A DNA stretch of 11,902 nucleotides from a virus (lineage: Duplodnaviria > Heunggongvirae > Uroviricota > Caudoviricetes). Positions 6,543-11,902 of this stretch are shown in pieces. Position numbers and translations under genes: made by a program. The DNA lies in IMG/VR virus record IMGVR_UViG_2778261167_000009. One strand, 5' to 3'. The first letter of the stretch is position 1. The number at the start of each line of letters is the position of its first letter. Below the pieces are notes generated by a model. The model was not told the DNA's origin and searched no databases. It worked only from the letters and a program-made list of their open reading frames with translations.

Positions 6543-7049
6543 ATGAATTTAAGCGCAATGGTATACCCTGATACTTTCATAATTAATGGCGAATCATTCA
6601 GAGGTAAAAGAAACGCAAAAGAAAACAAGGTATTAATTCCATATACAAATGAACCGGAAGTAACTATTGGTCAACACATTATCCAGCGTGTCGGTAAAAA
6701 CGAGATAAATCTAAAAATTATAGATATGAAGTTGCTTCCCAATGGAACCCTCAGACAGGGAACCAATCATCCAAATATGTTGACTCTCTATATTGAAAAT
6801 ATCACGGGAAATGAACATATGACGCCAACTAAAAGTAATACATTTAACATTGGTTCAATTAGTGGTGATCAAGTGCAGATAGGTGAGCATAACCATATGC
6901 TGGTAAACATCAGCATCACTGAACTGGTTGAAAAAGTCGCTAAATCGGGGGATGTACAAGCCAAATCAGTATTAAAGCAGTTACTGGAAAACAGTACCGT
7001 TGCCAGCATTGTTGGGGCTGGCGCAAGTGCCCTAATAGGCTTACTGTAA
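6543..7049 (+). CDS. Hypothetical 168-aa protein, AT-rich cargo/moron gene; unrecognised N-terminal domain and C-terminal hydrophobic glycine-zipper-like tail
   Basis: The only long plus-strand ORF in the core, opposite to all flanking genes and visibly more AT-rich. Good RBS and its own promoter and terminator. Translation ends ...ENSTVASIVGAGASALIGLL. No family recognised. Confidence 0.7.
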   Translation: MNLSAMVYPDTFIINGESFRGKRNAKENKVLIPYTNEPEVTIGQHIIQRVGKNEINLKIIDMKLLPNGTLRQGTNHPNMLTLYIENITGNEHMTPTKSNTFNIGSISGDQVQIGEHNHMLVNISITELVEKVAKSGDVQAKSVLKQLLENSTVASIVGAGASALIGLL

Positions 7050-10434: not shown

Positions 10435-10755
10435 TTATCCCCGATTTGAATCAGTATTCGCTTTCTTTATGGCATTTAATGCATCTGTGGCATTTTCAAT
10501 GGTGCACCGTAACGAAATATCAAAATGTCCAAGCATTGCCAGTAACAAACCGATATTACCCATATCAATGCGCATGGCCTTTTCGTCATATTCCTCATTT
10601 TCTGACGCATGCCACATCAGGCTACCAATTGACGCAACAGCCATTGATATATTGTCAGTAGCCCCATCCGCAGCGGAATAAACCTTTTTAGCAATATCAT
10701 GCTCACAGTTAAAATGCGGATTAATCAGGTACTGGTAATTTGACATATCAGGCAT
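10435..10755 (-). CDS. Hypothetical 106-aa protein
   Basis: Complete ORF with ATG at 10753-10755 and RBS AGGGGG; AT-rich. No family recognised. Confidence 0.6.
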   Translation of the reverse strand: MPDMSNYQYLINPHFNCEHDIAKKVYSAADGATDNISMAVASIGSLMWHASENEEYDEKAMRIDMGNIGLLLAMLGHFDISLRCTIENATDALNAIKKANTDSNRG

Positions 10756-10951
10756 GGCACACCCCCTGACGAATACGGGCGGCGAATACCATCACGCAGC
10801 CAGCCGGGGATTGCTGGCGTGCTTCCTGTTCGCTGGTGGCCACGATGTGAATCACGCGCGGTTGTGCCGTGCTCAGGGCGATAAAACGCCAGATGAATTT
10901 ATTCAGGTTGTGCGAGTCCCGCCCTTGCGGGTGTGTGGTATGATTTAACAT
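10748..10951 (-). CDS. Candidate 67-aa first gene of the leftward operon
   Basis: This is the C-terminal in-frame part of the spurious 306-aa ORF. ATG at 10949-10951 is preceded by GAGGT; stop at 10748-10750 overlaps the next gene start. Translation MLNHTTHPQGRDSHNLNKFIWRFIALSTAQPRVIHIVATSEQEARQQ... is plausible but unrecognised. Confidence 0.35.
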   Translation of the reverse strand: MLNHTTHPQGRDSHNLNKFIWRFIALSTAQPRVIHIVATSEQEARQQSPAGCVMVFAARIRQGVCHA

Positions 10952-11047
10952 AGCTACCTCGATACTTCTGCTATCGTTGGTGGTTAGAAGCCCGGTTAGT
11001 GTTAGCGCACTGCCGGGTTTCGTCGTTTCTGCACCTTGCATCAACAA

Positions 11048-11100
11048 GGTGTTAAACACCAATTTAAGCCTAGGTGTTAAACACGTCAAGTGTTGAACAC
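11048..11100. promoter_or_regulatory. Three palindromic operator-like sites overlapping a putative promoter for the plus-strand small-gene module
   Basis: GGTGTTAAACACC (11048-11060), GGTGTTAAACACG (11073-11085), GTGTTGAACAC (11090-11100). The last overlaps a -35-like TTGAAC (11093-11098), with 17-bp spacer and -10-like CATACT (11116-11121). GGTTAG direct repeats lie upstream (10982, 10994, 11000). Confidence 0.45.
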
Positions 11101-11150
11101 TTATTTTTTTTCCTGCATACTGCATTTGTTTTTTGTAAGGAGTACACAAC

Positions 11151-11330
11151 ATGGCGACAAAAGCAGTAAACGCAAAATCACAAACAGTTGCGGCAAGGGT
11201 TCCGCATGAAGTTATGAACAATGTTGAGGCGGTAAAAATGCCTGGTGAAAGTACAGGGCAGTTTGTAACAGCAGCATTAAAGCGAGAAGTTGAATACCGC
11301 CAGCATCGCAAGGCCAAAGAGCAGGAGTAA
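11151..11330 (+). CDS. Arc/MetJ-like ribbon-helix-helix DNA-binding protein, 59 aa
   Basis: Below the ORF-track size cutoff. Strong RBS AAGGAG (11137-11142) 8 nt before the ATG. Translation MATKAVNAKSQTVAARVPHEVMNNVEAVKMPGESTGQFVTAALKREVEYRQHRKAKEQE has a beta-strand then two helices in the RHH pattern. Confidence 0.6.
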   Translation: MATKAVNAKSQTVAARVPHEVMNNVEAVKMPGESTGQFVTAALKREVEYRQHRKAKEQE

Positions 11331-11387
11331 CCATCACCAGCGCCGTGGTGCGGTGAACTGTGGCGCACAGGGTTACAGGTATCTACG

Positions 11388-11567
11388 ATGACTGACAAAT
11401 CATTAAAGAAATTATCCTCATCCAAGAAAAAACAACGCAAAAATGCGGTAAACGAACATGAACCGGAGAGATTCGCACCATGTGCGTTTATCCTTGAGAA
11501 GTACCTTAAAGAGTATTCTAGGAAAATACGCTCATTGCAGGCATGGCAGCGAATCGAGCCAGACTGA
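11388..11567 (+). CDS. Hypothetical small basic protein, 59 aa
   Basis: Below the ORF-track cutoff. ATG at 11388 with weak SD (AGGT); translation MTDKSLKKLSSSKKKQRKNAVNEHEPERFAPCAFILEKYLKEYSRKIRSLQAWQRIEPD. Lies between the RHH gene and the plus-strand terminator. Confidence 0.4.
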   Translation: MTDKSLKKLSSSKKKQRKNAVNEHEPERFAPCAFILEKYLKEYSRKIRSLQAWQRIEPD

Positions 11568-11631
11568 TAGCATTGCCCACTAGCCGACAACCTGGTATTC
11601 TGGATATGCTCAAGTTTAGTGTTATGCCACT

Positions 11632-11660
11632 GGCGACCGCCCCCGGTCGCCTTTGTTTTA
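11632..11660 (+). terminator. Rho-independent terminator ending the plus-strand small-gene module
   Basis: Stem GGCGACCG, loop CCCC, stem CGGTCGCC (11632-11651), followed by TTTGTTTTA. It sits inside the 306-aa minus-strand ORF, arguing that ORF is not real. Confidence 0.6.
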
Positions 11661-11677
11661 TGTGTCATAGCTCCCCC

Positions 11678-11902
11678 CTAGGCTGCCTTACCTGAATTAA
11701 CGCGGTCACGGCTTTGCACCCAGTCCATAACTTCGGAAAGCAACCAGCCTACAGAACGCCCCCCAAGATTACGGCGAGACGGAAAGCCCCCTTTCTTCTC
11801 CAGTTCGTAGCGTGTAGTACGGCTGACGCCTGTTAACTTACGACATTCATCCTCACGAATTACGCGATCTGTTAGTGATTGAAATTGTGTATTTTGATTC
11901 AT
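11678..11902 (-). CDS. alpA: AlpA-family phage regulatory protein (winged-HTH activator/excisionase-like)
   Basis: 74-aa translation (IREDECRKLTGVSRTTRYELEKKGGFPSRRNLGGRSVGWLLSEVMDWVQSR) matches the AlpA pattern. The ATG is at the window edge, so the RBS and any upstream integrase are not visible. Confidence 0.85.
   Translation of the reverse strand: MNQNTQFQSLTDRVIREDECRKLTGVSRTTRYELEKKGGFPSRRNLGGRSVGWLLSEVMDWVQSRDRVNSGKAA

Follow-up and report, generated by a model that had tools for sequence, protein, structure and literature searches.

Immunity of the satellite phage P4 is carried by a sense-strand RNA, CI, with seqA and seqC sites, and we know of no protein repressor in P4. The P4 frame formerly called the cI open reading frame (ORF) extends to a cluster of ATG codons overlapping the vis stop, which gives an Eta protein of ~199 aa, and the Kil protein nested in it (65 aa) has its own Shine-Dalgarno (SD) sequence. 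In the published account (PMC10111431), eta contains a constitutive promoter, the truncated product is Kil, and termination is prevented when eta is translated from the upstream promoter. In phage-inducible chromosomal islands (PICIs), AlpA acts as an activator and suffices to induce EcCICFT073 (PMC6092414), and no repressor of a Gram-negative PICI has been reported in the literature. Here we describe a locus in a DNA stretch of 11,902 nucleotides (hereafter the window; IMG/VR virus record IMGVR_UViG_2778261167_000009, Caudoviricetes), in which a small plus-strand gene, ORF1, lies antisense within a 306-codon minus-strand frame that begins beside alpA and ends as a gene of the Icd-like (P4 Kil) family. 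From sequence comparison among relatives, we concluded that ORF1 is a real gene whose protein is selected in the plus frame, that selection acts to hold the long minus frame open, and that ORF1 is probably the DNA-binding repressor of a satellite island. The arrangement appears to join an Arc-type switch with nested genes of the P4 eta/kil kind, as a conserved gene-within-gene on opposite strands.

ORF1 and the ORF2 that follows it have their wobble positions at the same nucleotides as the minus ORF, so that third-position periodicity does not discriminate between the strands; instead, we compared variation at codon positions 1 and 2, BLOSUM scores, and counts of stop codons. The 59 related loci were retrieved through their similarity to ORF1, with no regard to the minus frame, and came from genera of Enterobacterales including Edwardsiella, Pectobacterium, Yersinia, Xenorhabdus, Klebsiella, Serratia, Providencia, and others. 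Over 54 distinct ORF1 genes, the plus-frame codon-position entropies were 0.82, 0.60, and 1.38, with position 2, which is position 1 of the minus frame, the most conserved. Amino-acid identity was higher in the plus than in the antisense frame in 78% of 1431 ORF1 pairs, the BLOSUM score per site was 2.83 in the plus frame versus 2.24 in the antisense frame, and the pairwise ratio of nonsynonymous to synonymous change (dN/dS) was lower in the plus frame. ORF1 belongs to the YlcI/YnfO family, scoring 59.6 bits against NCBIfam NF041551 (cut-off 30; E=2.3e-16; residues 9-50). An earlier reading made from the letters alone (the original prediction) had placed two unannotated 59-aa genes here behind a strong SD, and both frames as well as the AAGGAG (11137-11142, 8 nt ahead of the ORF1 ATG) were confirmed at their positions; neither gene is unannotated, since RefSeq lists ORF1 as WP_000201462.1, a YlcI/YnfO family protein, and ORF2 is a hypothetical protein in some genomes and has a PHROGs match. 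The comparison of plus and minus frames that had been suggested gave a clear plus-strand signal for ORF1, while third positions were uninformative and ORF2 was barely separated by measures other than dN/dS.

ORF1 looks like an Arc-type ribbon-helix-helix (RHH) protein. In a PDB profile search with 28 ORF1 homologues, the Arc repressor was the sole match, at a non-significant E=0.84, and hhalign aligned the ribbon and helix A of ORF1 and Arc (E=2e-4, probability 45%, 27 columns); both results lean toward the Arc-like identity that had been predicted. The AlphaFold2 (AF2) model, with a predicted local distance difference test score (pLDDT) of 79.6, contains a helix at residues 19-28, a loop with G32-E-S34, and a helix at residues 35-58 with a pLDDT of ~91; these helices agree with the RHH fold. 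When ORF1 and ORF2 were compared by tblastn with 50,697 phage records, no match was found at E<=1e-3, the queries being too short for that database. We found no paper that assigns a role to the YlcI/YnfO gene, which is listed just as an accessory "prophage-associated protein" (PMC13612085); other later papers make no mention of a repressor. The K-12 gene ylcI lies in a lambdoid prophage without an icd neighbor, and its shadow frame is open for 90 codons.

The strongest evidence for the function of ORF1 was comparative and came from the DNA beside it. Three operators of the form GTG-N5-CAC straddle two divergent promoters, P_L, which is predicted to drive the icd-like gene and the primase operon, and P_R, the predicted promoter of ORF1, and the middle operator falls in the P_L spacer. 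A first operator search, limited to even-length palindromes, missed these 11-nt sites, and a repeat-based search was used in its place. The analyzed relatives bear copies of GTG-N5-CAC, typically three, at similar positions; the P_L -35 element (CGTCAA on the plus strand) is invariant in relatives, including across genera, and the P_R -10 element is conserved, being TATACT in most relatives. Importantly, the operator core co-varies with ORF1 residues 10-16, and distant genera with the same residues have the same core. In particular, the ribbons KSQALKAR and KSQSLKSR go with the core GTGTGGCCCAC, KSKKLEAR with GTGTCAGCCAC, KSQMTTVR with GTGTATTTCAC, KSQQLNAR with GTGAATCGCAC, and KSQTVAAR with GTGTTAAACAC. 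This is the pattern of repressor-operator specificity types, which in our view would be explained solely by a DNA-binding protein, and the comparison across genera indicates that the ribbon residues would read the repeated operator bases, as in an RHH protein. From this covariation we infer binding and repression at these sites, in keeping with the earlier proposal that the RHH gene is the repressor module of the island.

The minus-strand frame runs antisense through the terminator of the ORF1-ORF2 transcript, ORF2, ORF1, the operators, and an RNA element described below, and then passes in frame into the Icd-like gene. In 12 of 13 E. coli copies (72-99% nucleotide identity), it is open for 309-530 codons; these frames start at the stop of alpA or of a neighboring ant/BRO gene and end at the icd stop, always in the icd phase. 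In most of the 59 distant loci, the frame in this phase is likewise open, for 200-400 codons. A stop census over 51 dereplicated loci, in which the in-phase minus frame was compared with the other two minus frames, counted 38 stops versus 290 and 267 over the 200 nt that lie upstream of ORF1, 0 versus 143 and 196 inside ORF1, and 38 versus 190 and 175 over the 150 nt that lie downstream of it. In the minus frame, 62 of 62 distinct ORF1 genes were free of stops, compared with 27.4 expected from the family's own codon usage, and a T-ending codon before a His or Gln codon, the context (T followed by CA) that would make an in-phase minus-frame stop, occurred in 0 of 289 cases, though T made up 21% of third positions. 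Since the loci had been gathered by ORF1 similarity, the open minus frame is not a selection artefact. Given the proteins, the probability that the shadow frame is open by chance is ~0.25 for ORF1 and 0.6-0.9 for ORF2. The original prediction had treated the 306-aa ORF as an artefact of odd composition hiding two genes; the odd composition was borne out (Cys 4.9%, His 4.6%, Asp+Glu 5.2%), but the frame is no mere artefact, its 3' 67 codons being the annotated Icd-like gene and its openness exceeding chance. Thus, translation of the minus ORF is likely, without making the plus-strand genes false. The positions of the features are collected in table 1.

Table 1. Positions and properties of the features of the locus in the window
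Feature	Position	Strand	Properties
Nested Icd-like (P4 Kil family) gene	10748-10951	-	67 aa; NF033153 E=4.6e-20; RefSeq-annotated
Eta-like long ORF	10748-11668	-	306 codons; starts 9 nt past the alpA stop, with AGGGGGGAG upstream
Two-hairpin RNA element (~80 nt)	10949-11033	+	Antisense to the icd-like start codon, SD, and leader
Operators (three copies)	11047-11059; 11072-11084; 11088-11100		AGGTGTTAAACAC (first two); AAGTGTTGAACAC (third); repeat-based search
P_L, predicted leftward promoter	11061-11089	-	TTGACG-17-TAAATT; inside the long ORF; consensus match
P_R, predicted rightward promoter for ORF1	11093-11121	+	TTGAAC-17-CATACT; read from sequence
ORF1	11151-11330	+	59 aa; predicted Arc-like RHH repressor
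ORF2	11388-11567	+	59 aa; basic, helical small protein; same frame as ORF1; phrog_21027 E=5e-30
Intrinsic terminator of the ORF1-ORF2 transcript	11632-11661	+	GGCGACCG-CCCC-CGGTCGCC, then TTTGTTTTAT
alpA	11678-11902	-	74 aa; Phage_AlpA E=4.8e-16

The nested Icd-like gene has its own conserved SD, GAGG at 10957-10960, 5 nt ahead of its ATG, and opposite this start lies the two-hairpin RNA element. A covariance model (R1) made from the E. coli copies detected this element in 63 of 65 sources; in each it shared the strand of ORF1 and lay between the two genes' starts, upstream of ORF1 and adjoining the icd-like start. The R1 element was not found in P4. Predicted partners were paired in 96.8% of cells, compared with 34-44% when the partners were slid, and 18 pairs showed double changes; none of 500 shuffles reached the observed pairing values, in an alignment that was fitted to the model and so favors structure. 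Because G-U pairs outnumber A-C pairs by 182 to 10, the RNA works on the plus strand; the alternative identity of the element as a minus-strand leader like P4 CI was rejected on the same count. A U-rich tail follows the second hairpin, and a putative -10 element (TATGAT at 10939-10944, with TG at 10936-10937) lies inside the first icd codons, with variants TATGAT, TATGCT, or TAGACT at the right distance, from which we infer the promoter of the RNA and its expression. The predicted RNA would extend over the start codon and SD of the icd-like gene and over most of the P_L leader. The sole Rfam match in the window was SymR (RF01809; 10952-11024, plus strand; 33.6 bits, E=0.003), which is under the gathering score of 61, and the SymR matches in relatives (39.1, 30.0, and 27.6 bits) were also all under it; no Rfam family reached threshold for the element.

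On the plus strand, ORF2 is intact in 13 of 13 E. coli copies at a constant spacer of 57 nt after ORF1, has a conserved core, ERFAPCAFxLEKFLKEY, and is basic, as had been predicted (15 Lys+Arg versus 8 Asp+Glu). Upstream of it there is a weak AGG and nothing stronger as an SD. Its dN/dS was ~0.17-0.22 in the plus frame versus 0.30-0.44 in the antisense frame in most pairs, and its AF2 model consists of a basic tail and a long helix (pLDDT 69.5). Homologues of ORF2 are confined to Escherichia: tblastn found none in the 59 other loci, where there is also no analogous second ORF after ORF1; an ORF2 profile run against 1.8 billion representatives gave 10 matches, none past close relatives; and a scan of genome contigs with the ORF2 alignment gave 88 pattern matches, of which 0 were confirmed. 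No toxin-family match was found for ORF2 in Pfam, NCBIfam, or PHROGs. Since ORF2 occurs solely in Escherichia, ORF1 and ORF2 are not an obligate two-gene unit, and ORF2 is a probable lineage-specific accessory gene.

The clean terminator that had been expected after the pair was found, is invariant in diverged E. coli copies, and is unidirectional because the minus strand has no U-run. The ORF1-ORF2 transcript is convergent with alpA, and the earlier observation that no strong minus-strand terminator follows alpA agreed with our terminator scan, which detected just two weak 5-pair hairpins (11206-11189 and 11060-11048) far downstream of alpA. Thus, the alpA transcript can run on into the long ORF. 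The interval between the terminator and ORF1 varies from ~100 to 500 nt across genera, and the antisense translation of the terminator, KTKA..GRQ, is found again where the long ORF begins in other genera. The terminator itself was conserved across genera (window 11632-11668; loci L042-L060), always at the first codons of the long minus ORF.

We compared this locus with the described systems. As in P4 vis-eta-kil, the long ORF begins at the end of an alpA homologue (after a 9-nt gap in the window, whereas the P4 ATG overlaps the vis stop), contains a nested in-frame Kil/Icd gene with its own SD (NF033153 E=1.6e-21 for P4 Kil and 4.6e-20 for the window) and an internal promoter (PLE in P4; P_L, by consensus match, in the window), and is followed by small genes and then a primase. 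The window AlpA is 48% identical to P4 Vis, and tblastn found similarity to P4 nowhere but in alpA/vis, the kinship of Kil being seen through the family hidden Markov model alone. The two differ in that P4 Eta has a Phage_ASH domain (PF10554, E=4e-23), for which the window ORF and three relatives gave no hit, and in that the RHH gene, the operators, and the cis-antisense RNA lie on the opposite strand within the long ORF of the window. Stop depletion without amino-acid conservation is consistent with a role of long-ORF translation in suppressing termination in the window as well. The Arc and Mnt proteins of P22 immI resemble ORF1 in length (~53-60 aa), in the order of N-terminal ribbon, helix, G-x-S turn, and helix, and in control of divergent promoters through short repeated operators, both the fold and the control being predicted for ORF1; however, the similarity of ORF1 to them is under significance, its operators are three copies of GTG-N5-CAC, and ORF1 is antisense inside another ORF.

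For the icd side of the locus, the parallel is the immI region of P1 and P7 (c4, icd, ant), in which translation of an Icd-family division inhibitor is blocked by a small RNA at its ribosome-binding site, as predicted for the window; c4 RNA comes from the same strand, upstream of icd, whereas the window RNA is cis-antisense, and Rfam C4 gave no match. In the 1992 account by Biere, Citron and Schuster, translation of P1 icd is said to be required for downstream expression. The RNA also resembles SymR of the E. coli type I toxin-antitoxin system SymR/SymE, an RNA of ~77 nt with two hairpins that starts inside the first codons of its target and is antisense to the start codon and SD, but matches in the window and relatives stay at 27-39 bits, far under the gathering score, and the target is of the Icd/Kil family, not the AbrB-like SymE. 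Finally, the locus resembles that of the Stl/Rpr master repressors of Gram-positive PICIs, the Staphylococcus aureus pathogenicity islands, in that the repressor gene points away from the replication operon and its product would hold the island in quiescence (PMC6092414). The protein types are unrelated; in the window int and alpA are on the strand opposite the repressor, and induction is proposed to occur by AlpA activator read-through, not by a known anti-repressor.

With moderate confidence, we propose a composite model in which the region, the immunity and regulatory region of a Gram-negative PICI satellite, is read on both strands as a genetic switch. In the quiescent island, P_R would express the ORF1 repressor (with ORF2 in Escherichia) from a transcript that stops at the terminator by alpA, and the repressor would bind the three operators, shut P_L, and regulate its own promoter. 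P_L would drive the operon of icd-like, DUF4222, and primase genes, and a short RNA from the plus strand, with its 5' end at the icd-like start codon, would pair with the P_L leader and block translation of the Kil/Icd-type division inhibitor. On induction, a helper phage would turn on alpA, a step shown for EcCICFT073 (PMC6092414), and transcription would read through, there being no terminator between. The long frame would then be translated from its own SD, 9 nt past alpA; this translation would shield the transcript from premature termination and displace the antisense RNA, head-on transcription would oppose repressor expression, and expression would go on into the 106-aa gene and the primase operon. 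We hold this anti-polarity mechanism with less confidence than the composite model, and the repressor role of ORF1 and the selection on the open frame with more. A bolder version is offered only tentatively: ORF1 may be the missing master repressor of Gram-negative PICIs, encoded wholly antisense inside an eta-like frame that is selected for its translation and not for its sequence, and overridden by helper-induced alpA read-through, which together with translation of the frame might also override the cis-antisense RNA guard on the Kil-type gene and so make up a conserved gene-within-gene switch that works from both strands.

Several observations weigh against the composite model. For the protein, the PDB search gave an RHH similarity short of significance, the AF2 monomer of ORF1 does not show the N-terminal strand, and Foldseek of the ORF1 model against the PDB yielded nothing usable. 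P_R falls one match short of the threshold of the promoter scan. For ORF2, measures other than dN/dS scarcely separate the strands, and the coding signal is weakly better in the plus frame. Rfam C4 and isrK gave no hit at E<=1 in the window or 11 relatives, so that the RNA part is unlike P4. About 8 of the 51 relatives carry in-phase stops in the intergenic stretch, which means that some loci can dispense with an open frame. Between genera, the N-terminal part of the long ORF shows no conservation save for the antisense of the terminator; its first 239 residues in the window contain no Pfam domain; and amino-acid-level selection was not clear in the dN/dS of a Xenorhabdus group with ~15 differences. 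An open yet unconserved N-terminus fits a frame whose translation matters and whose sequence does not, and fits a non-functional frame as well.

The last point bears on two alternative readings of the minus frame. The 306-aa ORF might be a chance shadow that is never translated, with just the two small plus-strand genes mattering. Shared wobble positions, which leave the frame open by chance with the probabilities given above, the odd composition, the lack of a Pfam domain in the first 239 residues, and the shadow frame of K-12 ylcI, which is also open, though for no more than 90 codons, would all fit it. It accounts poorly, however, for a frame that in most relatives is stop-free over ~200 nt of promoter and operator DNA and for 100-500 nt past ORF1, where the other two minus frames hold 5-8 times more stops, for the 62 stop-free ORF1 genes and the complete avoidance of the T-CA context, and for a frame that always joins the Icd-like gene in phase and starts beside alpA with an SD, as P4 eta does; we consider a chance shadow improbable. 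At the other extreme, true dual coding would make the long ORF a functional protein of the Eta/Bro network whose sequence matters, with ORF1 overprinted within it. P4 eta has been treated as a Bro-network gene (PMC10111431), a Bro-N-like remnant (E=0.069) is present in EcCICFT073-type copies, automatic annotation sometimes calls BRO-N pseudogenes in this stretch, and the C-terminus is a real Icd/Kil domain. Against this, the first 239 residues in the window are without a family match, N-terminal parts are unalignable between genera outside the terminator, the in-phase dN/dS was no better than that of other frames in the one group tested, and within ORF1 the amino-acid-level constraint sits in the plus frame, which makes dual coding unlikely, if less so than a chance shadow.

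Two further alternatives concern the plus strand. ORF1 and ORF2 share a transcript with a fixed 57-nt spacing, and RHH antitoxins commonly precede a small toxin gene and autoregulate, so the pair might be a type II toxin-antitoxin or interference module, as the original prediction had allowed. We think this very improbable: ORF2 is absent from all 59 non-Escherichia loci, in which ORF1, the operators, the RNA, and the synteny persist, so there is no conserved partner toxin; no toxin family matches ORF2; and the operators lie on the promoter of the replication operon as well as on the pair's own promoter. Alternatively, the rightward transcript might act mainly as a long antisense RNA against the eta-like mRNA of alpA read-through, with the ORF1 protein incidental. 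The plus transcript complements nearly the whole N-terminal part of the long ORF and ends just short of its start codon, and the position of the terminator is conserved though the intervening sequence varies. The coding signature of ORF1 in the plus frame, its conserved SD and start, and the covariation of its residues with the operator cores, for which a DNA-binding protein would be the sole explanation, leave equally little room for an incidental protein. Antisense action and repression are compatible with each other, and the two-strand switch remains the reading that we prefer.

The module is not peculiar to the window. EcCICFT073, the prototype Gram-negative PICI (NC_004431.1, 1377930-1384000), carries alpA, ORF2 (WP_000130015.1), ORF1 (WP_000190587.1), operators with the core GTGTGGCCCAC, the RNA element, and the Icd-like gene, and its open frame spans 433 codons from alpA to the icd stop. 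The synteny of icd-like gene, divergent ORF1, and convergent alpA is kept in most of the 59 loci across many genera. With the module present in a tractable prototype and in many Enterobacterales genera, the repressor hypothesis is directly testable, and the model offers a concrete route from alpA induction to replication. The locus also provides, with clean statistics, an example from bacteria in which selection holds an antisense frame open across a functional gene, which bears on the debate over antisense overlapping genes and, through inconsistent calls by the Prokaryotic Genome Annotation Pipeline (PGAP), on annotation. In 12 E. coli copies of the region 10748-11668 (L002-L013), PGAP and RefSeq gave at least four incompatible annotations: an Icd-like protein of 67, 104, 134, 158, or 184 aa overlapping ORF1, or, in other versions, an antisense "hypothetical protein" of 187 aa or BRO-N pseudogenes lying antisense to ORF2, with ORF2 present or absent. 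The weak Bro-N remnant in EcCICFT073-type copies is the motif ISESGFYKLI in the N-terminal part of the frame.

According to the RefSeq annotation of a 99.9% identical locus, the window is an E. coli capsid-forming PICI (cf-PICI) phage satellite; this locus is an E. coli chromosomal island situated between thiM and rcnR. The RefSeq genes, all on the minus strand of the window, encode an integrase, a DUF6387 protein, the AlpA-type helix-turn-helix protein, the Icd-like protein, a hypothetical 106-aa protein, DUF4222, primase, single-stranded DNA-binding protein (SSB), major capsid, prohead protease, portal, head-tail connector, HNH, and the small and large terminase subunits. The cf-PICI gene set is therefore present, with int, alpA, and primase and with its own capsid, protease, portal, connector, HNH, terS, and terL. 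The start of the 106-aa gene (10755) overlaps the stop of the icd-like gene and long ORF at 10748-10755 (ATGCCTGA), and an overlap of this kind also joins the DUF4222 and primase genes, a pattern suggesting that the genes from alpA into the replication set are translationally coupled in a single chain.

Variation at the ends of the small proteins was also observed. Long ORF1 variants of 100-108 aa occur in L011 (1219-1524), L012 (1235-1540), and L013 (1069-1374), as well as in L055, L062, and L067; they hold a 42-residue insertion ahead of the conserved tail RRKAKEQE, and the antisense frame is open across the insertion. This tail with its stop (11304-11330) is almost invariant among E. coli copies. 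An alternative C-terminus of ORF2 ends in (D)VKEQE and a stop (L007 2129-2149, L010, and L012), and the shared KEQE-stop ends may reflect a recombination junction or a nucleotide-level signal with AGGAG. In L067, a strong match to isrN, an Hfq-binding RNA, was found at 1907-2049 on the plus strand (152.7 bits), ~1 kb from the ORF1 homologue; this contig bears the label of an alphaproteobacterium, Martelella alba, but the island on it is of enterobacterial type, which contamination may explain. Plus-strand genes are few in the island of the window. ORF1 and ORF2 are among them, and one of the few others against the main direction of transcription is a 168-aa ORF at 6543-7049, between the capsid and SSB genes, which RefSeq lists as the hypothetical protein WP_024226529.1.

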